Assembly: GCA_965206595.1 (NCBI GenBank)
Contig: OZ242214.1
Coordinates: 6,848,001-6,912,000, forward strand
DNA length: 64,000 nt
DNA from: Candidatus Latescibacterota bacterium
GTDB taxonomy: Bacteria; Latescibacterota; UBA2968; UBA8231
Direction: 5' to 3'
Below the pieces are notes generated by a model. The model saw only the letters and a program-made list of their open reading frames with translations. It had not been told where the DNA came from and searched no databases. The position numbers and the translations under genes were made by a program. How positions within the stretch are numbered: position 1 is the first letter of the stretch; the number at the start of each line of letters is the position of its first letter. This document shows positions 7,607 to 64,000 of the stretch, piece by piece.

Positions 7607-7610
7607 ACCG

Positions 7611-12283: not shown

Positions 12284-12428
12284 ATGAGTAACCTAACCTT
12301 TTCAAAGCAAATAATGGCCGGCAAACCGGGAAGGGGCCTCCCCTGCCAAAAAAGGCAACCAGGAAGGCCCCCATGTCAACTGGCCAGGGTCGTGCATCGC
12401 AATGCCTGCTTCCCTGGTATCCCCTGCC

Positions 12429-41079: not shown

Positions 41080-41185
41080 TAGTTTTTCATCTCGCAGGGA
41101 TATGGATATCCGTCACGGGATGTCCAAAATCGTCCCTACACTCAGCCCTCACCTGTTCGGCGTGCGGCACCATGTCTGATCCCGA

Positions 41186-42444: not shown

Positions 42445-42755
42445 ACAGTCGCCAGTTCTTCGATGTCTTCAGCAAATGGCGGTAATGGTGAATAACTTTT
42501 GTATCCCGGATAGCCCGGATAGCCCGGATAGCCCGGATAGCCCGGATAGCCCGGATAGCCTCTGTTGGGCCGATCACTGAATCGATACAGTCGATCATTT
42601 GGCGTTATTGTGCCAAGGTACTCGCCGTCAGGGTCGAAGATATCCCCGTCATTCCGGGGTATCCAGCCAATCCAGTTGCCTTCGGTGTCAAAGACATACT
42701 TGTCTCGCTTAAAGGCGATCCACTGGCCAGAAGAGCTAAATAGATACTTGGTCAT
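42441..42755 (-). CDS. Small beta-flower-like protein with (GYP)n tail
   Basis: Repeats LFSSSGQWIAF / VFDTEGNWIGW / IFDPDGEYLGT, then GYPGYPGYPGYPGYPGYPGY; AGGA RBS; overlaps the HEPN start. Confidence 0.75.
   Translation of the reverse strand: MTKYLFSSSGQWIAFKRDKYVFDTEGNWIGWIPRNDGDIFDPDGEYLGTITPNDRLYRFSDRPNRGYPGYPGYPGYPGYPGYPGYKSYSPLPPFAEDIEELATV
42505..42558. repeat. 9-bp perfect tandem repeat (cccggatag)x6
   Basis: Directly visible; encodes GYP on the minus strand. Confidence 0.95.
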
Positions 42756-46468: not shown

Positions 46469-46754
46469 TTGTCTACCTTGTCGTCATTTTTCGCGATAAA
46501 CTGACGACAACATAGGCAATCGGGGCGAGCGGTCAAATTCCGGTCCAGTGCCTCACTTCGCCGTGGTCCCGGAGGTTCCCTGCTGCGCGCCCGGCGTCGG
46601 ATGGCCCTGGCCAGGTCCGGGACCGCCGGGTGGTCGTGGATTTCATGGTATATTCTGACTGTATCCGGAACCCAAATGGCGCAACCGATACCCCCGAGCC
46701 TCCCAATCCGCCAACCCCCTGGCCACCGTGGACCACCTGCAGGGACCTGCCACC

Positions 46755-49700
46755 TTGACTGACCCTTTCTTCGAGCGCCCCGTCCTCAACTCCCCCTACG
46801 AGCGCCCGGACAGGCACTGGGAGCTGGACGAGACCGGGCAGCCGACCCAGAAAACCATCGAAAACCGCCGCCAGGCGGAGTTCATCACGCCGATCCCGAA
46901 GCCCCGGAAGCGCAAGGGCTCGGCGCAACAGGCGGCGATGGTATTCGACGAAAGGGCGCAGAAGCTCGGGACCGATGGCCAGCAGTACGACCTGACCGCC
47001 ATCATCAACGGGGTCCGCCAGCAGGTCGACCGCTGGCGCGAGCTGCCGGACCCGGCCCAGTGGCAGGTGACCCCGGAGACGGCCCGCCTGCTCCGGCACT
47101 GGCGGCACCACCACTTCAGCGGCATCCGCCCCTTCTTCTGCCAGCTCGAAGCCGCGGAGACCGCCATCTGGCTCACCGAGGTGGCGCCCGGCACGCGAGC
47201 CGGCCGGGACTTCCTCAACCACTTGGCCAACGCCAACGACGACGCCAACCCGGAGCTGCCGCGGCTGGCTCTCAAGCTGGCGACCGGGGCCGGCAAGACC
47301 ACGGTCATGGCGATACTGATCGCCTGGCAGACCGTCAACGCGGTGCGCCGGCCCCAGAGCAGCCGCTTCACGCGCGGCTTCCTCGTCGTCACCCCCGGCA
47401 TCACCATCAAGGACCGCCTGCGCGTGCTGCAGCCGAACGACCCGGACAGCTACTACCAGAGCCGGGAGCTGGTTCCCAACGACATGCTGCCCGACCTGGA
47501 GAAGGCGAAGATCGTCATCACCAACTACCACGCCTTCAAGCTGCGCGAGCGCATGGAGCTTTCCAAGGGGGGCCGTTCCCTGCTCCAGGGACGGGGCGAG
47601 TCGCTGGCGACCCTCGAGACCGAGGGGCAGATGCTGCAGCGGGTCATGCCGGAGCTCATGGGCCTGAAGAACCTCCTCGTCCTCAACGACGAGGCCCACC
47701 ACTGCTACCGCGAAAAGCCGGGAGAGGTGGAAGAGGAGGCGCTGAAGGGGGACGACAGGAAGGAGGCCGAGAAGAACACGGAGGCCGCCCGCCTGTGGAT
47801 TTCGGGGCTGGAAACCGTCGGCAAAAAGCTCGGCATCAACCGGGTATTCGACCTCTCGGCGACCCCCTTCTTTCTGCGCGGGTCGGGATACGCCGAAGGC
47901 ACCCTGTTCCCGTGGACGATGTGCGACTTCTCGCTCATGGATGCCATCGAGTGCGGCATCGTCAAGCTGCCCCGCGTGCCGGTGGCCGACAACATCCCCG
48001 GCGGCGACATGCCGAAGTTCCGCAACCTGTGGGAGCATATCCGCGAGGACATGCCGAAGAAGGGGCGGGGCAAGGCCAGCCACCTCGATCCCCTGAGCCT
48101 GCCGGTCGAGCTGCAGACCGCGCTGGAGGCGTTGTACGGGCACTACCGGAAAACCTTCGAGATGATGCAGGAGGCGAGCATTTCCGTGCCCCCCTGCTTC
48201 ATCGTCGTCTGCAACAACACCTCGACCTCCAAGCTGGTCTACGACTACATCTCCGGCTTCCACCGCGAGAACGAGAACGGCTCGGCGACGCTTGAGAACG
48301 GGCGCCTCGAGCTGTTCCGCAACTTCGACGACGACGGCACCCGGTTCCCGCGGCCCCGCACCCTCCTGATCGACAGCGAACAGCTCGAGTCCGGGGAAGC
48401 GCTGGACAGGAACTTCCGCGACATGGCCGCCGGCGAGATCGAGCGCTTTCGCCGCGAGATCGTCGAGCGCACCGGCGACCGCCGCCAGGCCGAGAAGATC
48501 ACCGACCAGGACCTCCTGCGGGAGGTCATGAACACCGTCGGCAAGGAGGGCCGGCTCGGGGACTCGATCCGCTGCGTGGTGTCGGTGTCGATGCTGACCG
48601 AAGGGTGGGACGCCAACACCGTCAGCCACGTGCTCGGGGTCCGCGCCTTCGGAACCCAGCTGCTCTGCGAGCAGGTGGTCGGCCGCGCCCTGCGGCGGCA
48701 GTCCTACGACCTCAACGAGGAAGGCCTGTTCGACGTCGAGTACGCCGACGTCCTCGGGATACCGTTCGACTTTACCGCCAAACCGGTCGTGGCCCCGGCC
48801 AAGCCGCCGCGGGAGACCGTCCAGGTGCGGGCCGTGCGCCCGGAAAGGGACGCGCTGGAGATTCGCTTCCCGCGGGTGGCCGGGTACCGGGTGGAGCTGC
48901 CGGAAGAGCGGCTCGCGGCGGAGTTCAACGACGACTCCGTCCTCGACCTCACTCCCGACCTGGTCGGTCCCTCGATCACGAGAAACCAGGGGATCATCGG
49001 CGAGGGGGTCGACCTCGACCTCGTTCACACCAACGGCCTGCGCACCTCGACCCTCCTGTTTCACCTGACCCAGCGCCTGCTCTACACCAAATACCGCGAC
49101 CCGGGCGAGGAGCCGAAGCTCCATCTCTTCGGGCAGCTCAAGCGGATCACCAGGCAGTGGCTCGACGGCTACCTCGTCTGCAAGGGGAGAACCTATCCCG
49201 CCCAGCTCATGTACCAGGAGCTGGCCGACCTGGTTTGCGAGCGCATCGCCGCGGCCATCACCCGGGAGGGAATCGACAGCCGCCCGGTGAAGGCCGTGCT
49301 CGATCCGTACAATCCCGTCGGTTCGACCGCCCACGTAAATTTCAACACCACCAGGACCAACCGGTACGAGACCGATTCCCGCCGCTGCCACGTCAACTGG
49401 GTCGTCCTCGACAGCGACTGGGAAGCGGAGTTCTGCCGCGTCGCCGAGTCCCATCCGCAGGTCAGGGCCTACGTCAAGAACCACAACCTCGGCCTGGAGG
49501 TCCCCTACCGTTCCGGCTCGGAAACGCGGACGTACCTCCCGGACTTCATCGTTCTCGTCGACGATGGCCGCGGCGAGGAGGATCTCCTGCACCTCATCGT
49601 CGAGATCAAGGGGTACCGGGGGGAAGACGCCAAGGACAAGAAGACGGCCATGGACACCTACTGGGTTCCCGGGGTGAACAACCACGAGGACTACGGGCGC

Positions 49701-49823
49701 TGGGCCTTTGCCGAGTTCACCGATGTTTTCGAGGTGGAATCCGCGTTCAACGAGATGATCGAGCCGCAGGCCGTTGGAGACGCTTCGACGAATCCTGGCA
49801 GCAAGGGGTTTCACGAACCATGA
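46755..49823 (+). CDS. Type III-like restriction endonuclease Res subunit (BPTD_3080-like)
   Basis: PVLNSPY, ATGAGKT, NDEAHHCY, LSATP, MLTEGWDA, CEQVVGRALRR, C-terminal YLPDF..VEIKG. Confidence 0.92.
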   Translation: MTDPFFERPVLNSPYERPDRHWELDETGQPTQKTIENRRQAEFITPIPKPRKRKGSAQQAAMVFDERAQKLGTDGQQYDLTAIINGVRQQVDRWRELPDPAQWQVTPETARLLRHWRHHHFSGIRPFFCQLEAAETAIWLTEVAPGTRAGRDFLNHLANANDDANPELPRLALKLATGAGKTTVMAILIAWQTVNAVRRPQSSRFTRGFLVVTPGITIKDRLRVLQPNDPDSYYQSRELVPNDMLPDLEKAKIVITNYHAFKLRERMELSKGGRSLLQGRGESLATLETEGQMLQRVMPELMGLKNLLVLNDEAHHCYREKPGEVEEEALKGDDRKEAEKNTEAARLWISGLETVGKKLGINRVFDLSATPFFLRGSGYAEGTLFPWTMCDFSLMDAIECGIVKLPRVPVADNIPGGDMPKFRNLWEHIREDMPKKGRGKASHLDPLSLPVELQTALEALYGHYRKTFEMMQEASISVPPCFIVVCNNTSTSKLVYDYISGFHRENENGSATLENGRLELFRNFDDDGTRFPRPRTLLIDSEQLESGEALDRNFRDMAAGEIERFRREIVERTGDRRQAEKITDQDLLREVMNTVGKEGRLGDSIRCVVSVSMLTEGWDANTVSHVLGVRAFGTQLLCEQVVGRALRRQSYDLNEEGLFDVEYADVLGIPFDFTAKPVVAPAKPPRETVQVRAVRPERDALEIRFPRVAGYRVELPEERLAAEFNDDSVLDLTPDLVGPSITRNQGIIGEGVDLDLVHTNGLRTSTLLFHLTQRLLYTKYRDPGEEPKLHLFGQLKRITRQWLDGYLVCKGRTYPAQLMYQELADLVCERIAAAITREGIDSRPVKAVLDPYNPVGSTAHVNFNTTRTNRYETDSRRCHVNWVVLDSDWEAEFCRVAESHPQVRAYVKNHNLGLEVPYRSGSETRTYLPDFIVLVDDGRGEEDLLHLIVEIKGYRGEDAKDKKTAMDTYWVPGVNNHEDYGRWAFAEFTDVFEVESAFNEMIEPQAVGDASTNPGSKGFHEP

Positions 49824-50986
49824 CCAGCCGACGATTGCAGATAACATTGCAACCAGACGTGTTGCGTTGGGCGCGGGAGCGGGCAGGCATTGACCCTTCG
49901 GAACTGGCGCGCAAGCTGAACGTAAGCGCGGAGCGAGTGGTGGAGTGGGAACGCGACGGCAGGATCAGTGTTGCCCAGGCAGACAGGCTTGCCCAACGCA
50001 CTCACACCGCCCTGGGGTTCCTGTATTTGACAGAGCCGCCGAGAGACCGCCTGCCAATACCGGACTTTCGTACCCGAGACCATCTACCGCCTCCCAGTTC
50101 CGATCTGCTGGACACCGTTTACCATATGCAGCGCCGCCAGGCATGGATGAGGGATGAGCTCATAGAAGCCGGCGTAGAACCGCTGAATTTTATCGGAGCC
50201 TACAGCACGGGGGCCGATCCTCGGACAGTTGGGCTTGCCATGCGCGATGTCCTGAACCTTACCGGAAATTGGGCAGAAGAGGTGGACAGCTGGAGCGAGG
50301 CCCTCCGACATCTGCGGAATCGGACAGACGCCGCCGGAGTGCTGGTATTTTTCAATGGGATAGTTGGCAACAACTCCCACCGAAGCCTGAATCCCGACGA
50401 GTTCCAGGGCTTCGCCATCGCCGATGAGTATGCCCCACTGGTTTTCGTGAATAGCACCGATTTTCTGGCGGCACAGATGTTTACCCTGGCTCACGAACTA
50501 GCTCACCTCTTCATAGCCGAAAGCGGTGTCTCCTGTTTCGAAGACCTGCAACCGCCCTCGGACAAAGTCGAGCGGTTCTGCAACAAGGCCGCCGCGGAGT
50601 TCCTGGTGCCGGAGGAAGAACTACTCGTTTTCTGGGAGAGTATCGGAAGAACAGGTGACCCTTTTCAGGCCACCGCCCGCAGGTTCAAGGTGAGTTCTCT
50701 CGTTGCCGCCCGCCGGGCACTCGATCTCGATTTGATCGACAGCAGAACCTTTTTCCGATTCTACCAAAACAGGATCGATGAATTGCGCCGCCAGCAGCAG
50801 CGTCAGGGTAGTGGGGGCAACTTCTGGAATACTCAGAAGTGGCGTATCGGCCCGCGCTTTGCCACCGCCATCTTTCGTGCAGTCAGGGAAGGCCGTTTGC
50901 TCTATCGCGAGGCATACAATCTCACTGGCCTGAAAGGAAAAGCCTTTGACAGCATGCCGGAAAAGATGGAAATGTCGCAGGGATGA
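49820..50986 (+). CDS. XRE HTH-ImmA/IrrE metallopeptidase fusion
   Basis: LRWARERAG..WE, PIPDFRT, FTLAHELAH (HExxH), ERFCNKAAAEFLVP, FKVS. Confidence 0.9.
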   Translation: MTSRRLQITLQPDVLRWARERAGIDPSELARKLNVSAERVVEWERDGRISVAQADRLAQRTHTALGFLYLTEPPRDRLPIPDFRTRDHLPPPSSDLLDTVYHMQRRQAWMRDELIEAGVEPLNFIGAYSTGADPRTVGLAMRDVLNLTGNWAEEVDSWSEALRHLRNRTDAAGVLVFFNGIVGNNSHRSLNPDEFQGFAIADEYAPLVFVNSTDFLAAQMFTLAHELAHLFIAESGVSCFEDLQPPSDKVERFCNKAAAEFLVPEEELLVFWESIGRTGDPFQATARRFKVSSLVAARRALDLDLIDSRTFFRFYQNRIDELRRQQQRQGSGGNFWNTQKWRIGPRFATAIFRAVREGRLLYREAYNLTGLKGKAFDSMPEKMEMSQG

Positions 50987-51534
50987 ATCAGGACCATCCC
51001 TTCTTCGTGCTCGATGCGAATATTTCCATAGAGGCGCATCGCCGCTATTACGCGCAAGATCTTTGCCCGGGATTCTGGGATTGTCTGACTCATTTTTCCA
51101 TTGAACGACGAATTCTCAGCATCGATCGAGTGCGTGACGAACTGTTCGTCAGCCAGGATCGGCTGGTTGAGTGGGTGAAGGAGTCACAGGAGGATCTTTT
51201 CGAATCAACGGCAGATGAATCGGTAATAGATGCCTTTTCGGAAATGATGAACTGGGTTCAGGGAAACAATCAGTTCCGACCTGAAGCAAAAGAGCAATTC
51301 GCTGGAGCTGCCGATGGATGGGTCGCCGCTTACGCAAAAGTCCATGACGCAGTTGTTGTCACCCATGAAGCGTTTAACACGCAGGTGAGGAGAAAGGTGC
51401 CTTTGCCCAACGTCTGTGATCAGTTCGACGTTGACTACCGCGATACATTTGCGATGCTCCGCGAGCTCGAGGTGCGTTTTGAGTGGACCCCGCAGGTTTC
51501 ACCTGGACAGAATCTGGGGGAACCCGATCAATGA
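50983..51534 (+). CDS. DUF4411-family PIN-like protein
   Basis: LDAN..IEAHRRYY..PGFW, ADGWVAAYA..VVTHE, KVPLPNVC. Confidence 0.88.
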   Translation: MNQDHPFFVLDANISIEAHRRYYAQDLCPGFWDCLTHFSIERRILSIDRVRDELFVSQDRLVEWVKESQEDLFESTADESVIDAFSEMMNWVQGNNQFRPEAKEQFAGAADGWVAAYAKVHDAVVVTHEAFNTQVRRKVPLPNVCDQFDVDYRDTFAMLRELEVRFEWTPQVSPGQNLGEPDQ

Positions 51535-51821
51535 ACAGAGATGAAGTGCTGAAGGTTCTCAAAACGCACAAGGCGACCCTTGCGCAACGCTTCGGTGTAA
51601 CGGATCTCGCCCTGTTCGGGTCAATCGTCCGCGACCAGGCAACGGACGACAGCGACGTGGACATCCTGGTGAAGTTCGACTCGCCAGCAACATCAAAGCG
51701 GTATTTTGGTGTTCAGTTCTACATTGAAGACCTGCTGGGGCGCCCGGTTGGCCTGGTAACTGACAAAGCACTGCGGGCGGAGATGCGCCCATTTATCGAG
51801 CGCGAGATGGTCAATGTCTGA
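51531..51821 (+). CDS. MNT nucleotidyltransferase antitoxin (copy 1)
   Basis: LALFGS.VRDQATDDSDVDILV. Confidence 0.88.
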   Translation: MNRDEVLKVLKTHKATLAQRFGVTDLALFGSIVRDQATDDSDVDILVKFDSPATSKRYFGVQFYIEDLLGRPVGLVTDKALRAEMRPFIEREMVNV

Positions 51822-51880
51822 CCCCCCCCGAAGAAACGCGTACCTGGCGGCTTTATATCCAGGACATGAATTCAGCAAAA
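51814..51880 (+). pseudogene. 5' remnant of a HepT/DUF86 toxin
   Basis: atgtctgac..gcgtacctggcggctttatatccaggacatg matches the start of 54947..55318. Confidence 0.7.
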
Positions 51881-51934
51881 TTGCGAAACCTGCTGAAAAC
51901 GACCAATGCAGCCTCCGAGTAAAACGAGGAAGCC

Positions 51935-52096
51935 ATGCAACTGAAAGTCGTGATCCATCAAGCGGCGGAAGGCGGGTATTGGGCGGAAGTACCCTCTATC
52001 CCCGGATGTGCAACCCAAGGGGAGACCTTTGAAGAGTTACTGACCAACCTGTACGAAGCAATCGAAGGTTGCCTGTCCGTCTTCAGAGACACTTGA
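51935..52096 (+). CDS. Short HicB-family antitoxin (copy 1)
   Basis: MQLKVVIHQAAEGGYWAEVPSIPGCATQGETFEELLTNLYEAIEGCL; GAGGA RBS; below the ORF-track length cutoff. Confidence 0.8.
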   Translation: MQLKVVIHQAAEGGYWAEVPSIPGCATQGETFEELLTNLYEAIEGCLSVFRDT

Positions 52097-52169
52097 TGAA
52101 ATTGGCGAGTATCGATGAATCCGACCTGTAACCGAACCAGTTTGTGATACGGTAGAAAGACTGCAATCA

Positions 52170-52435
52170 ATGGCGAAACGAAAATCAACCAAGAGCGTCG
52201 AAAAGTCTCCGGCACCAGGACGCATCGCGGAAGAACATCCCCACGGCCGAGTATCAGGCGGTGATGGCGGAGGATGACCGCAATCCGATCGAGGTCGCGT
52301 ACGAGCGGCGCAACCCGGACCTCGACCCGCAGCTTGTCTGGCGCGGCAAGGACGAGCAGGACTGGTCGGACCTGGTGGTGGAGGCGCCGCCGCTGTTCAT
52401 CCAGGAGAAGGTCCAACCAAAGGTGCTGATCGACG
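52170..52435 (+). pseudogene. Duplicate of the 5' end of the mod gene
   Basis: atggcgaaacgaaaatcaacc...KNIPTAEYQAVMAEDDRNP..DPQLVWRGKDEQ..IQEKVQPKVLID, homologous to 55319-55583 with substitutions and one extra A. Confidence 0.9.
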
Positions 52436-52567
52436 AAGAAGCCAGAATCCGAGGCTGAGGAAACCAGTCGGTTCGAAACCCTTGAGGGTGCTCTGGCCTG
52501 CTTGATGGAAGATTTCCATTTGACCGGACTCGACGTCCAAAACGACTATCAAATGAGGATGCTGTGA
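52436..52567 (+). pseudogene. 3' remnant of an unknown gene coupled to the DUF1828 gene
   Basis: Frame KKPESEAEETSRFETLEGALACLMEDFHLTGLDVQNDYQMRML* overlaps the next start. Confidence 0.45.
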
Positions 52568-53346
52568 TGATCGACCTCGACGCGCTCCGAAAACTGTTAT
52601 GCGAGCGTCTTTGCGAAGACGTAGGAGTAGACCAACGCCCTGATGGCGCACTGATGCTGCGCACGCGCTTCGAGTTTCCCGATGGAGACCGCTACCCGAT
52701 TCACCTTGCCGAAGTGGGATCGGGCGGGTTCCGGCTGTCGGACCGCGGACACACACTCATGCACCTCAGCTACGAGCACGACGTGGACGCATTCCTGGAC
52801 GGGACGCGGGGGATGCTCCTTGAACGCATCATGGGTGAGACCGGGCTTCAATGGGACGGGGGCGCCTTCTGCCTCGAATCGTCCCCCGAACGGCTGCCGG
52901 AAGCCATCTTCTCCTTTGGGCAGGCGCTGACCAGGGTCTACGACCTGACGTTGCTGTCCCGCTCGAACGTCGGTTCCACGTTCTACGACGATTTGACCGA
53001 TCTCCTTTTCAGCCTGGTGGACGAAGCCAAAATCGAACAGGACTACCAACCGCAAGTGCCTAACGCCGAAGTCTACCCCGTGGATTACCGCATCGAAGGC
53101 AAGGGGGAGGTTCCTTTGTTCCTTTACGGGGTACCGAACCGTGACAAGGCACGCCTGACCACGATCATGCTGTCGCACTTCCACCGGCACGACCTCCGTT
53201 TCGAATCCATTCTCGTGTTCGAGGGTCAGGCAGAAATTCCGAGGCAGGATCTGGCGAGACTATCCGACGTCGGCGGGGACATGATATCATCTCTGGCCTC
53301 GCGAGAAGATTTCAACCGAAAGGTCTTACAGCGTGTCGCGGCGTGA
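52564..53346 (+). CDS. DUF1828-domain protein
   Basis: TRFEFPDGD..IHL..FRLSDRGHTLMHL; C-terminal YPVDYRI. Confidence 0.75.
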   Translation: MMIDLDALRKLLCERLCEDVGVDQRPDGALMLRTRFEFPDGDRYPIHLAEVGSGGFRLSDRGHTLMHLSYEHDVDAFLDGTRGMLLERIMGETGLQWDGGAFCLESSPERLPEAIFSFGQALTRVYDLTLLSRSNVGSTFYDDLTDLLFSLVDEAKIEQDYQPQVPNAEVYPVDYRIEGKGEVPLFLYGVPNRDKARLTTIMLSHFHRHDLRFESILVFEGQAEIPRQDLARLSDVGGDMISSLASREDFNRKVLQRVAA

Positions 53347-53426
53347 ACTGCTGAAGCACTGCGGGCCACGGGGGTGGCGGTTTGATCGAGGTGATCGGCG
53401 ACCGCTAATTCCCCGATGAGGTAAGG

Positions 53427-53645
53427 ATGAAATTGAAAGTTGTGATCCATCAAGCGGAAGAGGGCGGATACTGGGCGGAAGTACCCTCTATCCCCGGATG
53501 TGCGACTCAAGGGGAGTCCTTTGAAGAGTTGCTGACCAACCTCTACGAGGCCGTGGAAGGTTGCCTGTCCGCCGAGGTTGGGGACGGCTCTAACACGGAA
53601 AAAGCCAAGGTCATCGAAATTGCGATGAATGAAGATCAAAAATGA
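53427..53645 (+). CDS. HicB-family antitoxin (copy 2)
   Basis: VVIHQAEEGGYWAEVPSIPGCATQGESFEELLTNLYEAVEGCL. Confidence 0.88.
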   Translation: MKLKVVIHQAEEGGYWAEVPSIPGCATQGESFEELLTNLYEAVEGCLSAEVGDGSNTEKAKVIEIAMNEDQK

Positions 53646-54481
53646 GTCCAAACTTAAAACAAGCTGCCCTGATTTATGACTTCGACGGCACGCTTGCTCC
53701 CGGGAACATGCAGGAACACAGCTTCATTCCTTCTGTAGACATGACAAAGAATGACTTCTGGGACGAAGTCAAAGCATGTTCAAAGCAGGAAGACGCAGAT
53801 GAAATACTCGTTTACATGCGTCTGATGATTGAAAAAGCTAAACAGAAATGCCTTGAGATCACGAAAGAGGATCTCCGCAAACATGGTGGGGAGATTCCAC
53901 TATTCGAGGGACTCGAAGACAAGAGTTGATTCGATAGGATCAGCTGTCATGCCGCAACTAACGGTTTAGGACTTGAGCACTACATTATTTCTTCCGGACT
54001 TGAGGAAATGATCCGTGGCTGTTCCATTTTCCAGGTATTCCGTCATGTGTTTGCTTCCAAGTTCATCTATGAAGGCGACATTGCAAGATGGCCGGGAGCG
54101 GCGATCAACTACACGTCCAAAACCCAATATCTTTTCCGCATCAATAAGGGCATCGATAACCAATGGGATAACGACACTATAAACAAGTACATGGCGGAGC
54201 ACGAGCGTCCAATACCCTTCCAGCGAATGATTTTTGTAGGCGACGGCTTCACGGACATACCAGCAATGAAGATGATGACTCACCAAGGAGGGAACGCAAT
54301 AGCGGTATATGATCCCGAATGTAAGGACCAGGACCTTGGCAAGATTCATCAGCTGATCGCAGACAATCGCGTTGACTTCGTGGCACCAGCAGATTATTCC
54401 GAGAATTCGCAGATGGAAATAATCGTCAAAGGGATCCTGAGCCGGATCGGGCGTTCGATAGAGATTGGCGGGCCGCAATAG
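53642..54481 (+). pseudogene. HAD-superfamily hydrolase with an in-frame TGA at 53927-53929
   Basis: YDFDGTL..MQE; the frame continues after TGA as FDRI..HYIISSG..KTQYLFRINKG..GDGFTDIPAM. Confidence 0.82.
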
Positions 54482-54663
54482 CGCTCAACGCAGATATGGG
54501 GTGGGTCAGGACAAGGGACCCGAAAAATCCGAAGACCTCACATCAGGCCGTCATGGTAGGGGACGACGGAGCCCGATTGAGGCCGCAGAGATGCGCAGCA
54601 ACCTCGACCGTGAACTCCGGCTCGTCTGTTGTGACAAGGACGACCGGTACGGAAAGAAGATCA

Positions 54664-54954
54664 ATGAACAGAGATGAAGTCCTGAACGTGCTCCGAACGC
54701 ACAAAGCAGCTCTTGCGCAACGTTTTGGCGTCACTGGACTCGCCCTATTCGGTTCCTTCGCCCGCGACCGAGCTACGGACGACAGCGACGTTGACATCTT
54801 AGTTCGCTTTGACAAGCCGGCAACTTCATACGCCTACTTCGGCACCCAGTTCTACTTGGAGGACCTGCTGGGGCATCCAGTCGATCTGGTAACTGACAAA
54901 GCACTGCGGGCGGAGATACGGCCCTACGTGGAGCGGGAAATCGTCAATGTCTGA
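54664..54954 (+). CDS. MNT nucleotidyltransferase antitoxin (copy 2)
   Basis: LALFGSFARDRATDDSDVDILV..VDLVT. Confidence 0.9.
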   Translation: MNRDEVLNVLRTHKAALAQRFGVTGLALFGSFARDRATDDSDVDILVRFDKPATSYAYFGTQFYLEDLLGHPVDLVTDKALRAEIRPYVEREIVNV

Positions 54955-55318
54955 CGCCAACCAAGAATCGCGTAGCTGGCAGCTCTATATTCAGGACATG
55001 ATCGAATTCAGCGGCAAGGTTCTGTCTTATACGGAGGGACTGGACCAAAAGCGGTTCATCGCGGGGACGCTCGTCTACGATGCCACTTTGCGCAATCTGG
55101 AACTGATCGGCGAGGCGGCGACCCACGTCCCGGGTGAGGTGCGTGAGGCTCATCCGGAAATTCAATGGCGCCGCATTATAGCAACGCGGAATCGCCTGGC
55201 TCACAGTTACCTGGGTATGGACGACGACGTTATCTGGGACATCATCCAGACTGATGTCCCGAACCTGCTACCGGCATTGCGCAACGTGTTGAACACGATA
55301 AACGAGGAATCCGCATAA
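54947..55318 (+). CDS. HepT/DUF86 HEPN toxin
   Basis: RNLELIGEAA, RNRLAHSY (RX4HXY), IWDII. Confidence 0.9.
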   Translation: MSDANQESRSWQLYIQDMIEFSGKVLSYTEGLDQKRFIAGTLVYDATLRNLELIGEAATHVPGEVREAHPEIQWRRIIATRNRLAHSYLGMDDDVIWDIIQTDVPNLLPALRNVLNTINEESA

Positions 55319-58267
55319 ATGGCGAAACGGAAATCGACCAAGACCGTTGAAAGTCTCCGGCACCAGGAGGCATCGCGGAAGAACATCCCCACGGCCGAGT
55401 ACCAGGCGGTGATGGCGGAGGACGACCGCAACCCGATCAGCGTCGCGTACGAGCGCCGCAACCCGGATCTCGACCCGCAGCTCGTCTGGCGCGGCAAGGA
55501 CGAGCAGAGCAGGTCGGACCTGGTGGTGCAGGCGCCGCCGCTGTTCATCCAGGAGAAGGTGCAACCGAAGGTGCTGATCGACGATCTGCGGCAGCGGAGC
55601 AAGGAGACGGAGGCGGAAAAGGGCAACGGCGACGGCACCCAGACCGACCTGTTCGCCGACTTCAACGGGCTGCCGGCGGGGGACGCGCAGACGGAGTTCT
55701 ACCAGCACGACGCCAACTGGTCGAACCGGATGATTCTCGGGGACAGCCTGCAGGTGATGGCCTCCCTGGCGGAGCGGGAGGGGCTGCGCGGCAAGGTGCA
55801 GTGCATCTACATCGACCCGCCCTACGGCATCAAGTTCAACTCCAACTTTCAGTGGTCAACGACAAGCCGCGACGTCAAGGACGGGAACGCCGGCCACATT
55901 ACGCGCGAGCCCGAGCAGGTGAAGGCGTTCCGAGATACGTGGCGGGATGGGATTCACTCGTATCTGACGTATCTGCGGGATCGGCTGACGGTGGCGCGGG
56001 ATCTGTTGACGGAGAGCGGGTCGATTTTCGTGCAGATTGGGGACGAGAATGTGCATCGGGTGCGGGCGTTGATGGACGAGATTTTCAGTGAAGAGAATTT
56101 TCACGCGCAAATTGCAGTACGAAAGGCATCACCACTTGGCGGGGCTGGATTGGTTGGAGTGAATGATTATCTCCTTTGGTACAACAAAAACAAAGCAGTA
56201 GCAAAGTTTCGTCGAACCTTCAAGCTATTAGATGCTCAGGGAGATCGGTATTATAACATCGTCGAAACCAACGACGGCCAGCGGCGTTCCATAAGCTCAG
56301 AAGAATTCGCAAATTTAGGGTTGCTGCCCAGCACGGCGCGTCTTATTACGTCATCTGCTCTCGTTTCTTCCGGTCTTACTCCGTCGTGCGTTTTTGACGT
56401 TGATTTTCAGAGCAAGAGGTACAAGCCATCAACTGGCAGGAGTTGGCGAACCAATCCTACTGGTATGGAAAGACTAAAGTTAGCGGGTAGACTCATTTCG
56501 ACAGGTAATACTCTTCGCTATGTAGCGTACTTTGACGACTTTCCCTACGCCACAATTGACAACTCATGGGGGGACACTGGCGGCGGAGCTATCGTTGGAC
56601 AAAAAATATATATTGTCCAAACGCCGAACAAAATACTGGGAAGATGTATCCTAATGACCACCGACCCCGGCGACATCGTCCTCGACCCCACCTGCGGCTC
56701 CGGCACCACCGCGTACGTCGCCGAGCAGTGGGGCCGCCGCTGGATCACCATCGACACCTCCCGCGTCGCCCTCGCGCTTGCCCGCGCCCGCGTCATGGGT
56801 GCGCGCTATCCCTACTACCTGCTCGCCGACAGCCGCGACGGCCGGGTCAAGGAAGCCGAGATTTCCCGCAAGGCACCCTCGGAAGCGCCCACGTACAACG
56901 ACATCCGCCAAGGCTTCGTTTACGAGCGCGTCCCCCACATCACCCTCAAATCCATCGCCAACAACGCCGAGATCGATGTGATCTGGGAGAAGTTCCAGGA
57001 AACCCTGGAGCCGCTGCGGGCGGAGCTGAACGCCGCGCTCAACCGCTCCTATGAAGAATGGGAGATTCCCCGCGAACCGGGCGACCCCTGGTCCGCCAAG
57101 GCCACCGAGGCGTGGGACAAGCTCCAGGCCGCTCGCACGGACACCGAGAAATCCGCAGCGCTGCGCGTGTTGAACAAGGAGCTGGGCCGGAAGTACGCGC
57201 TGGAGGACGTGCCCTGCAGGCCCCGCGATCCGTGGGAACCCGGCGCGACTGATCTGCACCGCCGCTGGTGGGAACAGCGCATCGCCCGGCAGAAGGAGAT
57301 CGACGCCTCCATCGCCGCCAAGGCGGACTACGAATACCTCTACGACAAGCCCTATGAGGACAACAAGAAAGTCCGCGTCGCCGGCCCCTTCACCGTGGAG
57401 AGCCTGTCGCCGCACCGCCTGCTCGGTGTCAATGAGAACGACGAGCTCATCGACAACATCGCCGAAGCCAGCCTCGGGTACGGCGAAAAGCAGGACTTCG
57501 CCGGGATGATCCTCGACAACCTGAAAACCTCCGGCGTCCAGCAGGCGCACAAGGAGGACCGCATCGCCTTCTCAGGGATCAGACCCTGGCCAGGCGACCT
57601 CGTCTGCGCCGAGGGAACCTACGTCGAGGGCAACGGCGACTCCGCCCCCCAGAGACGCGCCGGCATCTTCATCGGCCCGGAGTTCGGCACCGTCTCGCGC
57701 CCCGACCTCGTGTCGGCGGTGCGCGAGGCGGCCGACGCCGACTTCGACGTGCTGGTCGCCTGCGCCTTCAACTACGACGCCCACGCCTCGGAGTTCAGCA
57801 AGCTCGGCCGCGTCCCGGTCCTCAAGGCGCGCATGAACGCCGACCTCCACATGGCCGACGACCTCAAGAACACCGGCAAGGGCAACCTCTTCGTCATCTT
57901 CGGCGAGCCGGACATCGACCTCCTCGACGCCGGGAACGGACAGATCCAGGTCAAGGTCAACGGCGTCGACGTGTTCCATCCCAACACCGGCGAAATCCGC
58001 AGCGACAACGCCGACGGCATCGCCTGCTGGTTCGTCGACAGCGACTACAACGAGGAAAGCTTCTTCGTCCGCCACGCCTACTTCCTCGGCGCCAACGATC
58101 CCTACAAGGCGCTGCGGACGACGCTGAAGGCCGAGATCAACCAGGAAGCCTGGGAGACCCTGCACAGCGACACCTCCCGTCCTTTCGCCAGGCCGGCGTC
58201 GGGCCGGATTGCGGTGAAGGTGATCAACCACCTCGGGGACGAGGTGATGAAGGTGTTCCGGGTGTGA
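55319..58267 (+). CDS. Type III-like N6-adenine DNA methyltransferase (Mod)
   Basis: GDSL, YIDPPYG, VLDPTCGSGTT, WITIDTS; C-terminal IAVKVINHLGDEVMKVF. Confidence 0.93.
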   Translation: MAKRKSTKTVESLRHQEASRKNIPTAEYQAVMAEDDRNPISVAYERRNPDLDPQLVWRGKDEQSRSDLVVQAPPLFIQEKVQPKVLIDDLRQRSKETEAEKGNGDGTQTDLFADFNGLPAGDAQTEFYQHDANWSNRMILGDSLQVMASLAEREGLRGKVQCIYIDPPYGIKFNSNFQWSTTSRDVKDGNAGHITREPEQVKAFRDTWRDGIHSYLTYLRDRLTVARDLLTESGSIFVQIGDENVHRVRALMDEIFSEENFHAQIAVRKASPLGGAGLVGVNDYLLWYNKNKAVAKFRRTFKLLDAQGDRYYNIVETNDGQRRSISSEEFANLGLLPSTARLITSSALVSSGLTPSCVFDVDFQSKRYKPSTGRSWRTNPTGMERLKLAGRLISTGNTLRYVAYFDDFPYATIDNSWGDTGGGAIVGQKIYIVQTPNKILGRCILMTTDPGDIVLDPTCGSGTTAYVAEQWGRRWITIDTSRVALALARARVMGARYPYYLLADSRDGRVKEAEISRKAPSEAPTYNDIRQGFVYERVPHITLKSIANNAEIDVIWEKFQETLEPLRAELNAALNRSYEEWEIPREPGDPWSAKATEAWDKLQAARTDTEKSAALRVLNKELGRKYALEDVPCRPRDPWEPGATDLHRRWWEQRIARQKEIDASIAAKADYEYLYDKPYEDNKKVRVAGPFTVESLSPHRLLGVNENDELIDNIAEASLGYGEKQDFAGMILDNLKTSGVQQAHKEDRIAFSGIRPWPGDLVCAEGTYVEGNGDSAPQRRAGIFIGPEFGTVSRPDLVSAVREAADADFDVLVACAFNYDAHASEFSKLGRVPVLKARMNADLHMADDLKNTGKGNLFVIFGEPDIDLLDAGNGQIQVKVNGVDVFHPNTGEIRSDNADGIACWFVDSDYNEESFFVRHAYFLGANDPYKALRTTLKAEINQEAWETLHSDTSRPFARPASGRIAVKVINHLGDEVMKVFRV

Positions 58268-58332
58268 GGGCTTAAGTTTTCAAATTGTTCGAATAACCTG
58301 ATGGCAAGTGATACTTGTTCGGAGATTACGCA

Positions 58333-61110
58333 ATGACATTCAACCGAAGTGCGGCTGAACGCTGGCACTTGGAGGTGCCGGGGGCGCGGTGGTTCAAGGC
58401 CGATTTGCATATCCACACGATTGACGACTTACCGGGCGACAGGGCAAAGGTCCCGGACGGCGTCGACGGTCGCCGACCAGTCTCGGACGAGGCGCTCATT
58501 TCTTATGCTCGGAAATTCCTGCAAAGTGCGGCCGCTATGGGCGTCCACGTGATCGGTGTCACACCTCATTCCCCGCGCCTCGAAACTGACGACGAGACGA
58601 GCGCGGTCTGGCGGATAGTGGAAGAGTGGAACACCGGCGTTGACGATGACGGCAAGCTGTTTCGGGACAAGATATATGCGGTGTTTCCCGGCTTTGAGCC
58701 TGCGCTCAAACAGGGCAAACGAGGGCTGCATTTGCTGTTCCTTTTTGATCCTGAGATCGGGCGCGACAGCTATTTGAAGGCGTTCAATCTCGCCATGGGT
58801 GGCGTGTCTCCATGGCGCAACAAGGAGCTTCAAATTTCCAGCAAAAGCGCCGACGAGGTTTTTCGCGAACTCCGTGAGTTCCATGGGCAAGAGTGTCCCT
58901 TAGACCGGGATGGGAAGCCTCAATGGAGCTACATTGCGCTCGCACCCCATATAGATACCGATAAAGGCCTCCTCGGAGAACTCAATGCGCAGGTACTGAA
59001 AAACTTCCCGCACAGCGAAGTGACGGGCCTTGAGCTAGGCGACGAGAAACTTCCCGAGGACACCATAAAAAACCGGGATTGGCTGGCAGATGGGATGGCC
59101 GCAAACAATCTGGCGTTCTTCCACGGCAGCGACGCCTACTCAGTTGAGGAGATCGGAAGGCGTCACACATGGCTCAAACTGGCTAGTCCTAGAATCGAAG
59201 CGTTACGTCAAGCGTTCATCGCCAGCGATTCACGGATACGCATCGGATACGAACGGGACGCAGACGGTACTCTCACTGAGATTGGGCATCCGCCCGACGT
59301 AACGGTGAATGAGCGCCCCTGGCTCAAATCCGTCACTGTTGCTGGAGGGGCTTCTTTCTTTAACACGACGAACAAAGATGTAGATGGGACACGCTTCGAC
59401 TTGAATCCAGACCTTACCTGCATCATAGGCGGAAGCATGACGGGCAAGAGCACACTACTGGACGGTCTGCGTTTGTACATCGATGCTCCATTGCCACAGG
59501 ACGACGGAATCAAGAAGCAGGTCGAAGCTCGTGGCCGACAACGTTTTCTCGGGGGTTCAGCCGCAGTCAATCTCGACTGCCCGGGACAAGATCCAACTGC
59601 ATCGCACCACCAGCAGTGGCCCGCGGTCTTCTACGCGCAGAACGAGTTGCAGCGGCTTGCCCAGGAACCAGAAGCAGTTGAAGAGCTTCTCGCCCGACTC
59701 GTGCCGTCGGAGATGCACGGCATTCAGGCGCGTCAACCACAGTTGAGCGCGGCCGACAGGGAACTCGACCGTGCGACGAAGCGCCTCGCGAAACTGGATG
59801 AAGACCTCACGGATGCCGAGCAGGCTTTCGAACGGACGGAAAAAGCCGCTAAGGAACTTGCAGCATTCTCGCAGGCCGGTGTAGAGAAGCTGCACCAAGC
59901 CTCACGCGACCTTCGCCGGTGGCAGGAATCCGCTGAAGTTTCCTGTGCACCGGAAGCCGATCTGGATCGCCTGCTGAATGGGGTGGACGCCTTCGAGTTA
60001 CCGGAAATCGACGACCGTCTAGCCGAGTTATTGAAAGATGCCGACGCTGACGCGGCGCGCTACGAGGACTTGCAGGCTCGTTGGAACCGCATCCTCGAGC
60101 ACGTTCGATCGGCGAATCGGGAGCTGGCATCGTGGAAAGTAGAAACACAGTCGATCGTCGATGCGTTGGAAGTACAAGAGCAACGGGTTCGCACGGAAGT
60201 CGATCGCGCGCTCGCCGCTCACGGACTCGACGGGGCGCGGATCGAGGAATTCAAGGCACTGAACCGGCAGGCATCGCTCTTGGAGAGCTATAAGGCGAAT
60301 CTCGATCAGGTGCGCAACAAGCTTATTACCGGAGAGCGCTCTTTCGAGGGACACCTCACGGAACGGCAAAGCCTCGTGGAAGAGCAACGGGCCGCCTTCG
60401 ACCGTGTGATCAAGACCATCCTCGCCGAATTCGAGGGCCGGATTTCGCCCCGTCGAGTCGACGACGGAAGTCGCGGGCCTCTCGACCGCTTTCTTAAACA
60501 TCTCGGCCAGAGAGGGATCACCCGATGGTGGAACGAACTGGACGACCAACACAGACCCTCACCGAGGGAATTGCTCGATCACTTGCACGAGGACACGTTG
60601 AAAGAGGTCGGTATGAGTGATGCCGTGCAAACGACGTTTCGGGAACAATTAACTCGAACCAGACAACGGGACCTGGCCGCAATTCGCTGCTCCGACCGCT
60701 ATCTCCTGGAGCTCAGGATGGACGACGGAAGCCACCGGCAGTTGGACGACCTTTCCGGCGGACAACGGGTGAGTCTTCTTCTTTCGCTGCTGCTAGAGAC
60801 AAGCGACGAACGTCCCTTAGTCATCGACCAACCGGAGGACGAGTTGGACAACCGGTTTCTCTTCGACACGGTCCTCCCCGCGCTCAAGCGGCTCAAGGGA
60901 CGCCGGCAGATCATCGTTGCGACGCACAACGCGAACATCGTCGTCAACGGCGACGCGGATCAGGTGATTCAGCTCGAGGCGACGGCGAACCGGGGCCGTG
61001 TGGCGTGTGCGGGGGCCATCGAGGAGCCAGCCGTCCGAGACGCCATCGTTGGGACCGTTGACGGCGGTGACGAAGCGTTTCGCCTCCGCCGGCTGAAGTA
61101 CGGGTTCTGA
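58333..61110 (+). CDS. PHP-domain + ABC/SMC-like ATPase fusion (Ppl/TrlF-like)
   Basis: DLHIHT, GLHLLFLF, PHID, GSDAY; Walker A GGSMTGKS, coiled coil, LSGGQ, VIDQPED, ATHNAN. Confidence 0.85.
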   Translation: MTFNRSAAERWHLEVPGARWFKADLHIHTIDDLPGDRAKVPDGVDGRRPVSDEALISYARKFLQSAAAMGVHVIGVTPHSPRLETDDETSAVWRIVEEWNTGVDDDGKLFRDKIYAVFPGFEPALKQGKRGLHLLFLFDPEIGRDSYLKAFNLAMGGVSPWRNKELQISSKSADEVFRELREFHGQECPLDRDGKPQWSYIALAPHIDTDKGLLGELNAQVLKNFPHSEVTGLELGDEKLPEDTIKNRDWLADGMAANNLAFFHGSDAYSVEEIGRRHTWLKLASPRIEALRQAFIASDSRIRIGYERDADGTLTEIGHPPDVTVNERPWLKSVTVAGGASFFNTTNKDVDGTRFDLNPDLTCIIGGSMTGKSTLLDGLRLYIDAPLPQDDGIKKQVEARGRQRFLGGSAAVNLDCPGQDPTASHHQQWPAVFYAQNELQRLAQEPEAVEELLARLVPSEMHGIQARQPQLSAADRELDRATKRLAKLDEDLTDAEQAFERTEKAAKELAAFSQAGVEKLHQASRDLRRWQESAEVSCAPEADLDRLLNGVDAFELPEIDDRLAELLKDADADAARYEDLQARWNRILEHVRSANRELASWKVETQSIVDALEVQEQRVRTEVDRALAAHGLDGARIEEFKALNRQASLLESYKANLDQVRNKLITGERSFEGHLTERQSLVEEQRAAFDRVIKTILAEFEGRISPRRVDDGSRGPLDRFLKHLGQRGITRWWNELDDQHRPSPRELLDHLHEDTLKEVGMSDAVQTTFREQLTRTRQRDLAAIRCSDRYLLELRMDDGSHRQLDDLSGGQRVSLLLSLLLETSDERPLVIDQPEDELDNRFLFDTVLPALKRLKGRRQIIVATHNANIVVNGDADQVIQLEATANRGRVACAGAIEEPAVRDAIVGTVDGGDEAFRLRRLKYGF

Positions 61111-61121
61111 GGGCTTTCGAG

Positions 61122-62315
61122 ATGGAGTGGTTGGATATTCTCAAGCATGTCGAGGCGGGCGAAAGCAGGAAAACCGAGTTCAAACGGGGGCTTGGCGACT
61201 TGTCGGCAATCGGCAGGGCCATTTGTGCCTTCGCAAACACCGGGGGCGGCGTCATCATCCTGGGCGTGGACAACTCCCAGGAAATCGTAGGCGTCAGAGA
61301 AGAGTCCGAAAAGGTACAGGAGCGTCTGACGGCGTTCCTTCAGACCGGTTGCAGCGCGCCCGTTTCCGCGCAAAGCGGACGTCATGAAGACCCCAACGGC
61401 TGGGTACACTGGGTTGAAGTTCCCCGCCAGCGAGGATTCGAACCGCTTCGCTACGATGGCCGGGTGTGGGTTCGCCGGGAACGCAGCAGCGTTGAACCAT
61501 CGCCCAGCGAACTGCTGGAACTCTACAACGCCTTCGGTTACATCATGACGGAAGAACGCCCGATCCAGGCTGCCACGCCGGGACACATCGATCTCCAAAG
61601 CTTTCGCGAGTATCTCCGAGAGCTCGGACTCGATACCGAGGATCAACCGCAGCCCGATGCCGAGGACGATCTCCGCAACCGCGGGGTGATAGCCGAGCTC
61701 GGGGGAGCACTGCACCCGACGGTTTATGGTGTGCTGGCGTTCGGAAAAGAGCCGCAGCGCTATCCGCAGACGCGCAGTTTCCGGATAGAATGCGTCGCAT
61801 ATGAAGGTGACGACCGGGCTTCGAATACACTGCAACTGGCTGATGTCACAGGTCGTTTGGACGAGCAGGTACGACGAGCGGTCGGGTGGTTCCAAGGCCT
61901 CGGGAGATTCGAGTCGTATCGAGGTCTGATCAGGGAAGACCGTTGGCTCCTGCCGGAAGCAGCGCTCAGGGAAGCCTTGGTAAACGCGGTCGTGCACAGG
62001 GACTATGCCATCATCGGCTCGAATGTGTTGCTTGAGGTCTACGACCGTCACGTCGACGTCACAAGCCCGGGAACACTGCCCAACCACATGACAGTCGAGA
62101 GCGTTCGCGCCGGCGCTCATCCGCGATCCCGGAACGAGTCAATGGCGAACTACATGCTTGAAAAAGGATTCATGGAAAAGCGGGGCAGAGGCTGGCCCCT
62201 GATGCGCAAGGCAATGCTGGAGTTCAATGAGACCGAGCCCGAAATATTGCAGGACGACGGAGGCGGGTTCGTCAGAGTGAGGTTCCATCTCGACTCGCCC
62301 GAAGAACAAACATGA
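61122..62315 (+). CDS. Schlafen/AlbA_2 domain + HATPase_c_4 (RecG C-terminal-like) protein
   Basis: GESRKTEFK, ICAFANTGGGVIILGV, REALVNAVVHRDY, SPG, RN..EKRGRG. Confidence 0.88.
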   Translation: MEWLDILKHVEAGESRKTEFKRGLGDLSAIGRAICAFANTGGGVIILGVDNSQEIVGVREESEKVQERLTAFLQTGCSAPVSAQSGRHEDPNGWVHWVEVPRQRGFEPLRYDGRVWVRRERSSVEPSPSELLELYNAFGYIMTEERPIQAATPGHIDLQSFREYLRELGLDTEDQPQPDAEDDLRNRGVIAELGGALHPTVYGVLAFGKEPQRYPQTRSFRIECVAYEGDDRASNTLQLADVTGRLDEQVRRAVGWFQGLGRFESYRGLIREDRWLLPEAALREALVNAVVHRDYAIIGSNVLLEVYDRHVDVTSPGTLPNHMTVESVRAGAHPRSRNESMANYMLEKGFMEKRGRGWPLMRKAMLEFNETEPEILQDDGGGFVRVRFHLDSPEEQT

Positions 62316-62355
62316 ACTCCAACACCGCTAACAGCACGTTCCGCCAGTTGATGGG

Positions 62356-63348
62356 CAGCGCATCGCCCGCCAGAAGGAGATCGACGCCTCCATCGCCGCC
62401 AAGGCCGACTACGAATACCTCTACGACAAGCCCTACGAAGACAACAAGAAGGTCCGCGTCGCCGGCCCCTTCACCGTGGAAAGCCTGTCGCCGCACCGCC
62501 TGCTCGGTGTCAATGAGAACGACGAGCTCATCGACAACATCGCCGAAGCCAGCCTCGGGTACGGGCAAAAGCAGGACTTCGCCGGGATGATCCTCGACAA
62601 CCTGAAAACCTCCGGCGTCCAGCAGGCGCACAAGGAGGACCGCATCGCCTTCTCAGGGATCAGACCCTGGCCAGGCGACCTCGTCTGCGCCGAGGGAACC
62701 TACGTCGAGGGCAACGGCGACTCCGCCCCCCAGAGACGCGCCGGCATCTTCATCGGCCCGGAGTTCGGCACCGTCTCGCGCCCCGACCTCGTGTCGGCGG
62801 TGCGCGAGGCGGCCGACGCCGACTTCGACGTGCTGGTCGCCTGCGCCTTCAACTACGACGCCCACGCCTCGGAGTTCAGCAAGCTCGGCCGCGTCCCGGT
62901 CCTCAAGGCGCGCATGAACGCCGACCTCCACATGGCCGACGACCTCAAGAACACCGGCAAGGGCAACCTCTTCGTCATCTTCGGCGAGCCGGACATCGAC
63001 CTCCTCGACGCCGGGAACGGACAGATCCAGGTCAAGGTCAACGGCGTCGACGTGTTCCACCCCAACACCGGCGAAATCCGCAGCGACAACGCCGACGGCA
63101 TCGCCTGCTGGTTCGTCGACAGCGACTACAACGAGGAAAGCTTCTTCGTCCGCCACGCCTACTTCCTCGGCGCCAACGATCCCTACAAGGCGCTGCGGAC
63201 GACGCTGAAGGCCGAGATCAACCAGGAAGCCTGGGAGACCCTGCACAGCGACACCTCCCGGCGGTTCGCCAAGCCGGCGTCCGGCCGGATTGCCGTGAAG
63301 GTGATCAACCACCTCGGGGACGAGGTGATGAAGGTGTTCCGGGTGTGA
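62356..63348 (+). pseudogene. Second copy of the mod 3' third (no catalytic motifs)
   Basis: QRIARQKEIDASIAAKAD...EVMKVFRV*; lacks DPPY and the SAM-binding motif. Confidence 0.88.
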
Positions 63349-63401
63349 GAATCGGATACGGGCGATTCCCATTCACCCCTGAACACTGAGAAGAGTTTTC
63401 C

Positions 63402-64000
63402 ATGGAAAACCAAATCATACCGACAGCAGGTAAACACTACATCTTCCCACCGGAGCGCTTCCATGGATATATCCAGGTAGGTGGGCAGCGCATAGAGATC
63501 AGTCTATCAGCGAGTGTGGATCGATCCGGGCGTCTGTCACTGTTGGATGTGGATCCTATCAAGGATGTGGCCGGCGGACTCAAACTCATGGAGTCGCTTA
63601 ACGGCTCGGGAAACACTGTCGAGGAATTTCAGCTGGAATGTGAAGGTTCTGACGGCAAAAAATTAACAAGTGATCGAGCGTATCTCGCCTCCGGTCGCCA
63701 AAAATTAACTCCCATCGACTGTAGCCACAAGGAAAGCGATCGAAGATATCTTGTCGAATTCAACATTCAGCTACGGACTGTGGAAGCATGCCTGACAATG
63801 AAAGCGAGCGAAACAAGCGATCTTCCGCAAATCACCCTTAGCTTACTCGGTTTTGAATCCTTTAGCCCTCTGTGTGCTACTACTAGATTCGGAACGGTCA
63901 AGGCTTGGGAGGTTCGCGCTGACCTAGGGAACGAAATTACAGGCAAGCTTGCAATTCAAGGCCAAAAAGGTCTGTCCTCAAACTGGCATACAGACGCGAA
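63402..64000 (+). CDS. Hypothetical low-GC protein, 3'-partial
   Basis: Open frame from ATG 63402 (MENQIIPTAGKHYIFPPERFHGYIQ...) to the window end; not in the ORF track because it has no stop. Confidence 0.65.
   Translation, partial: MENQIIPTAGKHYIFPPERFHGYIQVGGQRIEISLSASVDRSGRLSLLDVDPIKDVAGGLKLMESLNGSGNTVEEFQLECEGSDGKKLTSDRAYLASGRQKLTPIDCSHKESDRRYLVEFNIQLRTVEACLTMKASETSDLPQITLSLLGFESFSPLCATTRFGTVKAWEVRADLGNEITGKLAIQGQKGLSSNWHTDA

Follow-up and report, generated by a model that had tools for sequence, protein, structure and literature searches.

The locus in this report is a type III restriction-modification (R-M) operon in a 64,000-nucleotide (nt) stretch of a Candidatus Latescibacterota genome (contig OZ242214.1, positions 6,848,001 to 6,912,000; the whole stretch is called the window). 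Its methyltransferase gene, mod, is intact and is followed by cargo genes and then by a second copy of its own 3' end. Integrons, with which a preliminary description of the window had compared it, have a tyrosine recombinase, IntI, attC sites behind their cassettes, and a fixed crossover point. The mod locus is like an integron in that the newest cargo is apparently the closest to a fixed gene, with older cargo displaced, and unlike one in having no IntI, no attC sites and no fixed crossover point. Since recombinase, attC sites and fixed breakpoint are all absent, it is not an integron or other site-specific element, and it is best read as ordinary homology-anchored gene capture, not as a new kind of mobile element.

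Homology-facilitated illegitimate recombination (HFIR) has been proposed for the effector-immunity arrays of type VI secretion (T6SS) in Vibrio cholerae and for orphan modules of Rhs and contact-dependent inhibition (CDI) systems, and the parallel with integrons was already drawn there (PMC5361080). These arrays share with the mod locus a conserved anchor gene, a new module, displacement of the old 3' end with its downstream gene, and an integron-like layout without an integrase. They differ from it in three ways: the anchor gene here codes for a DNA methyltransferase, a conserved part is duplicated where the arrays repeat a variable toxin tip, and unrelated anti-phage genes make up the cargo. 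In Escherichia coli, linear fragments that were trimmed and recircularised integrated by single crossover, with duplications of 109-950 bp, in 56/60 clones (PMC3240628). As in those clones, a partial duplication of variable length of the homologous locus flanks foreign DNA here; the clones came from a laboratory conjugation assay (~4e-9), and for the window locus a circle is only a possible route.

Insertion of R-M genes with long target duplication (PMC2853133) likewise leaves direct repeats that are long and of variable extent, in the absence of mobile-element genes, and repeat-driven amplification is discussed for such loci. Such insertions are delimited by an insert of <20 kb, a duplication of >30 bp and no mobile genes, and the mod locus falls within these limits (insert 4,087 nt, duplication 994 nt). 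They are also expected to carry R and M genes in the insert, which here holds a PHP-ATPase gene, an AlbA_2 gene and a gmrSD stub; R-M genes are the insert there, whereas here an R-M gene is the target that supplies the repeat. The mod locus belongs with anchor-bounded defence islands (such as the immigration control region of E. coli, PMC12707154) and genes embedded in defence systems (bioRxiv 10.1101/2024.01.29.577857). These likewise have variable cargo (GmrSD, HEC systems and toxin-antitoxin pairs) between conserved genes, but the passages drawn on describe content, not scars of partial repeats or junctions at the nucleotide level. We found no description of partial mod repeats in the BPTD_3080-type R-M family in the literature searched, with most subscription papers outside its scope. 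Gene gain in integrase-free defence islands is usually assumed; here what appears to be a young intermediate is resolved at the nucleotide level, and relatives seem to hold older, eroded stages. The recombination process itself is already known from the T6SS/Rhs arrays and from transformation genetics.

The repeat pair, its alleles and its junctions

The intact mod gene (55319..58267, + strand, as are all features below unless noted; PADLOC PDLC03632, 1393 bits) encodes 982 aa. By alignment, its final 331 codons including the stop (copy 1, 57275-58268) recur as codons 653-982 of a second mod allele (copy 2, 62356-63349, which has no catalytic motifs). The two form an ungapped direct repeat of 994 nt, spaced 5,081 nt from start to start with 4,087 nt in between, and their identity of ~98% (blastn E 0.0) is well beyond chance. 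Inside the pair lie a gene for a TrlF-family, Ppl-like PHP-ATPase (58333..61110; NF045780, 384 bits with a cut-off of 350; PADLOC Ppl E 7e-36), whose family membership points to a defence role, a gene for a Schlafen/AlbA_2 protein with a HATPase_c_4 domain (61122..62315; Pfam), and the first 15 codons of a cut, HEC-06-like gmrSD gene (62312..62357). Behind copy 2 starts an ApeA-like HEPN gene for a protein of 448 aa (63402..64000, extending past the window), identified through an identical full-length protein, P0001, and a homologue, P0003, with PF18739. The genes behind the two copies have G+C contents of 0.586 and 0.494, and the repeats 0.652-0.654. The preliminary description had recognised this arrangement of ~1-kb repeats, cargo and a different lower-GC gene behind each copy, and its outline stands.

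That description had also reported copies nearly identical in the centre and different toward both ends, and had taken them for related mod alleles; both points hold. Of the 15 mismatches, 8 fall within the first 211 nt and 6 within the last 89 nt; the 694 nt in between contain a single one, so that a single nucleotide polymorphism (SNP) remains mid-repeat, and one block of 493 nt is fully identical. Three of the 14 changed codons alter an amino acid (E723Q, P955R and R958K), which agrees with the EK/QK and RPFARP/RRFAKP differences given in the preliminary description; the other 11 changes are synonymous, and 12/15 differences are at third positions. Six of the 15 sites vary among relatives; the survey of relatives covered 76 loci, given here by L numbers (the best of 622 matches, one genome per species). 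Because the changes are mostly third-position and synonymous, and several are polymorphic in relatives, the copies diverged as working alleles and do not represent a gene with a duplicate in decay. Copy 2 as it now stands is a remnant, since the catalytic half of mod is missing from it and it carries P955R, at a position where 67/69 relatives have P.

The identity of the central repeat exceeds chance expectation. Over the same 694 nt, 28 sites distinguish the independent alleles of L004 and L001, compared to 1 for the window copies, and a low-difference stretch of 695 nt was reached in 96/20,000 permutations, in which sites were drawn where two close relatives differ and the post hoc choice of boundaries was allowed for. 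We infer that the middle was homogenised by conversion, either during or after insertion.

The 44 nt ahead of copy 2 are the start of the gmrSD gene, overlapping the AlbA stop codon. They align as far as 62357 with gmrSD genes that lie directly behind mod in L006 and L036, the latter a GmrSD_N/C, HEC-06-like gene, and the sequence then continues at mod codon 653. With the L006 gmrSD allele as stand-in for the donor, gmrSD codon 15 and mod codon 653 share 2 nt at the join (62356-62357), which sits inside an imperfect match ranking 25 of 2,919 mod positions. A second scar lies upstream, where codons 1-89 of a mod allele (52172..52436; 92% identity to the intact mod, with a +1 frameshift) are joined at 52436/7 to a cut 3' tail (52437..52563). 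The tail belongs to a gene that precedes DUF1828 in L018, L033 and L064, in which the matches start at 52436-52438 and the gene extends upstream. Over 52231-52435 this 5' remnant shows 6 differences to L004, compared to 13 for the intact mod. Each join cuts coding sequence and is illegitimate, and the gmrSD-mod junction is no att site. Homology at one end (the mod anchor) and a non-homologous gmrSD-mod join at the other is the combination that marks HFIR. The E. coli Chi octamer at 57264-57271 ends 4 nt ahead of the repeat start; its position is probably a coincidence, since 64 kb contain 5 such octamers and the codons R-W-W account for its sequence.

The absence of a visible integrase, noted earlier, was confirmed by a Pfam scan, with zero matches to integrases, recombinases or transposases among 199 open reading frames (ORFs) of the window up to 64000 (61 ORFs and 138/140 of the remaining ones of at least 100 aa; the two skipped are longer-start versions of ORFs that were scanned). 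The 64-kb window has 0 tRNA or tmRNA genes, and no tRNA target with a duplicated 3' end. Only one attC-like core pair was found in 49,800-64,000, within mod (57037-57175), and none behind cargo genes. Sigma-70-like sites, the one promoter type considered as a possible cassette promoter, number 0 in 55000-64000, where shuffled sequences gave 2.0 on average. The 5' duplicates that had also been pointed out were matched as mod 5' (271 nt, 92%), MNT (355 nt, 78%) and HicB (145 nt, 88%).

Variable cargo and mod remnants among relatives

The closest relatives of the locus, among these best 76 of 622 matches, are Ca. Latescibacterota genomes. One of them, L004, is syntenic upstream (96.8% nt identity over 37533-41461); it carries only one mod, and its cargo is different. 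The preliminary description had named variable cargo behind mod and partial mod repeats as things to look for in relatives, and both were found. The first co-oriented ORFs behind mod fall into 40 clusters among 64 cases (63 loci and the window); the survey was mechanical, 13/76 loci gave no such ORF, and the picks include non-defence neighbours and perhaps shadow frames. Proteins encoded behind mod include UvrD-like, IetA (IetAS), HEC-01, HEC-06, SIR2, Dsr2, GmrSD, PIN and AbiJ-type proteins. For candidate anti-phage genes, the slot behind this mod family is a compact source. In 14/64 cases the ORF that follows overlaps the stop of mod, and in most it starts within 55 nt of it. A uvrD-like gene lies downstream of mod, at variable distance, in 28/55 loci with at least 9 kb of downstream sequence, and also in two annotated plasmids.

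Counting as remnants same-strand matches of at least 45 nt and at least 80% identity, we found downstream copies of the mod 3' end in 5/64 loci, compared to 1/118 other long ORFs (Fisher p 0.021), and the lone control is itself a res-mod remnant. All six strict downstream copies in relatives extend to the 3' end of mod, and their breakpoints, 51-278 nt from the stop, all differ. Together with the window and with L075, whose 26 nt of mod are below the 45-nt rule and outside the 5/64, the breakpoints lie 26, 51, 59, 80, 93, 121, 278 and 993 nt from the stop, with no fixed crossover point. The duplicated lengths are 994 nt in the window and 49-274 nt in relatives. Matches in L044, L057 and L066 from a relaxed search were dropped as intergenic. 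Two relatives, L053 and L063, share the layout of the window, with cargo, a cut uvrD-like 5' end and a mod 3' remnant; the L053 remnant is 97.8% identical to the mod of another genome but 93.5% to its own, and 19/24 differences of the L063 remnant are at third positions.

Ten loci (the nine with repeats and L004) were scanned for site-specific recombinases, and none was found in 141/157 ORFs; insertion sequence (IS) transposases alone turned up, in 3 loci. Phages and E. coli genomes gave no match to further loci of this type. The gmrSD/HepT stubs are recurrent (L006 at 12933-13009; L007 and L038 just ahead of mod), which suggests frequent loss of nucleases or toxins via small deletions. Five relatives have an extra 200-450 nt at the same mod position near codon 876 (L006 at about 12370-12575, in frame; L027, L055, L063 and L065), and in L051 about 4.6 kb (5348-10001) interrupt mod at codons 336-341, within the target-recognition region.

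Formation of the locus and competing explanations

We consider it fairly probable that the locus formed by homologous recombination anchored in mod, with an illegitimate second end, in a type III R-M defence hotspot. The conserved backbone would be res, slot, mod, slot, often followed by the uvrD-like gene, and most cargo would be exchanged without scars when the host recombines within this shared backbone. From time to time a fragment of a related allele, here the mod 3' part with the PHP-ATPase gene, the AlbA gene and the gmrSD start, would recombine homologously only at its mod end, its other end being joined illegitimately. Mod would stay intact, the new cargo would come to lie right behind the mod stop, and the old mod end with the ApeA-like cargo would be displaced downstream. 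The PHP-AlbA cargo is probably the newer because the gmrSD stub is too short for anchoring. Recombination between the copies would homogenise the middle of the repeat and could excise or amplify the 5,081-nt unit, and microhomology deletions would later erode the mod remnant. Between 994-nt repeats at 98.5% identity, RecA recombination is able to release the unit as a non-replicating circle of 5,081 bp, after which the ApeA-like gene would follow the intact mod, or to amplify it. Remnants may be retained because the mod end may carry a start signal for cargo.

How the fragment entered is a matter for more tentative statements. It is possible that it was trimmed, circularised and inserted by single crossover, as the preliminary description had proposed for a circle; there is laboratory precedent for such duplications (PMC3240628), but linear and tandem-deletion routes give the same sequence and the alleles show no consistent phase. 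Linear integration by HFIR, in which the divergent target-recognition region would form the border of homology and conversion would follow, fits as well and is nearly as likely. The broader proposal of recombinase-free capture, amplification and excision is upheld in part, in that a dedicated recombinase is lacking and excision or amplification through the repeats is possible in principle, but remnants are rare (5 of 64 loci, and no second mod place in 38 plasmids). The terms "attachment arm" and "integron-like array" have to be given up, as the breakpoints all differ, attC and IntI are lacking, and other genes of the islands show partial copies almost as often: partial copies of any kind occur for mod in 8/76 cases, for res in 5/68 and for other long ORFs in 11/164, which weighs against a special role for mod.

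Several further observations count against anchored capture. The 2-nt exact microhomology at the gmrSD-mod join is below the 3-10 bp usual for HFIR (PMC3240628), and the 5' junction at 52436/7 has no extended match. The enrichment of mod 3' copies over control ORFs is modest, and among the 38 plasmid records 0 held a second mod place, although short remnants would escape such a search. When the 15 sites were compared with eight relatives, the states of L004 and L001 showed no consistent donor or recipient phase, so that donor is not separable from recipient. No relative searched showed an empty site, in which a full mod would be followed immediately by the ApeA-like gene, and L058 and L012 carry internally deleted second modules that favour tandem duplication plus deletion there. 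The ApeA-like gene had no relatives within the 76 loci, and spacer DNA resembling that ahead of it also lies behind mod in L007. The donor context PHP-AlbA-gmrSD was not found; plasmid relatives of the PHP-ATPase are distant, with the top hits at ~25% and all 1,136 below 60%.

The main rival is that two complete res-mod-cargo modules in tandem were trimmed by a microhomology deletion that ran from codon 15 of gmrSD to the second mod's codon 653, with loss of the redundant R-M genes and retention of the cargo, the 5' remnant arising likewise. We hold it to be rather unlikely in the window. Such products do occur elsewhere, since in L058 a mod with fused 5' and 3' ends (18400-18558) lies behind MNT-HepT, and in L012 an intact operon has upstream of it a fusion of res 5' and mod 3' sequence (968-2089); the L053 remnant has a later internal deletion, and one genome has two loci (L019 and L022). 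On the other hand, 0/76 loci have two full mod genes in flanks of up to 10 kb, and two steps are required, with deletion ends falling repeatedly within the last third of mod.

An assembly artefact, by merging of strain variants or collapse of a repeat, is very improbable. The central identity and the 493-nt block do look like a collapsed repeat, and elsewhere an exact 107-nt tandem duplication (25454-25672) breaks a gene. An overlap of 2 nt at the gmrSD-mod join is too short for overlap assembly to have created it, though, a SNP is kept mid-repeat, the identical ApeA-like protein P0001 is recorded on a contig of 7,053,161 nt, and remnants of the same type are present in chromosome-level or megabase records (L007, L058, L063 and L064). 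The short join overlap and the identical downstream protein are the reasons why we regard it as unlikely.

There is only the slightest chance of a dedicated site-specific, integron-like system, with the mod 3' end as att site and a recombinase acting in trans: every remnant keeps the 3' end, cargo is stacked in one orientation and in two plasmid loci a gene of a recombinase family lies at 4-6 kb from mod, but the variable breakpoints largely refute it, no recombinase was found in the window or in the ORFs scanned in the ten loci (IS transposases aside), and the sole attC-like core pair sits within mod. Equally remote is plain duplication of the resident mod end with decay of the spare copy, which would suit copies that are 98.5% identical and mutual nearest neighbours, with two doublet changes private to copy 2, but fits poorly with mostly synonymous changes that include polymorphisms of the relatives, unlike neutral decay, and leaves the new cargo unexplained.

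Synonymous skew and neighbouring features

The target-recognition region of the window mod (about 56070-56645) is low in GC, with a G+C content of 0.465, and has been swapped; more than half of its columns differ from L004 and L001. The mod sequence around it has a synonymous skew at four-fold sites, which we normalised per codon box and per locus over 68 loci that are not phylogenetically independent. To the left of the region (window 55919-56090), observed/expected is 0.43 for C and 1.76 for G, with a G excess in 62/68 loci; to the right (window 56650-56820), it is 0.48 for G, with 7/68 loci having a G excess and 61/68 being G-poor. The final 7 mod codons are again C-poor (54/62 loci), which may reflect a ribosome-binding signal. 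Since neither the mod 5' end nor either end of res shows the skew, it is no general mark of cargo slots. A stem between the skewed flanks was rejected, the flanks not being complementary (mean z 0.11, 5/71 above 2). The flip is possibly a footprint of repeated domain exchange, and the literature searched held no account of it. We think it improbable that selection has shaped the res-mod-uvrD backbone into a stacker of cassettes that needs no recombinase and is spread across phyla, one in which one-sided mod recombination would at a single stroke swap methyltransferase specificity and install defence cargo, the last mod codons might supply a start signal for cargo, the kilobase repeats would be a reversible switch for amplification and excision, and the skew would represent evolved directional recombination arms.

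The other backbone gene, res (46728..49823), encodes a restriction helicase/nuclease that is type III-like and belongs to the BPTD_3080 family (NCBIfam NF046055, 1376 bits with a cut-off of 800; 96.7% nt identity to L004), and together with the type III mod it places the locus in the BPTD_3080 family of type III R-M systems. The slot between res and mod has older cargo at 49820..52096 (Pfam matches to IrrE/ImmA-HTH, DUF4411, an MNT antitoxin, a short HepT 5' stub and a HicB-like protein), and the order MNT-stub-HicB-mod recurs in L036. Newer cargo at 52564..55318, assigned from profile matches and sequence, comprises DUF1828, a HicB-like gene, a HAD-like PDC-S34 gene and an MNT-HepT pair. The HAD-like candidate defence gene (53642-54481) is broken by an in-frame stop at 53927-53929.

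Farther upstream, the 107-nt duplication splits an AAA ATPase gene that is HEC-03B-like. A cluster of three genes on the - strand (34794-41079), an SNF2 helicase gene, a PLD gene and one other, is probably a defence system; the stretch of 96.8% identity to L004 (37533-41461) forms part of it. At 42493-42564, beside a HEPN gene, a 9-nt tandem repeat encodes GYP repeats in a 4-fold beta-flower protein.

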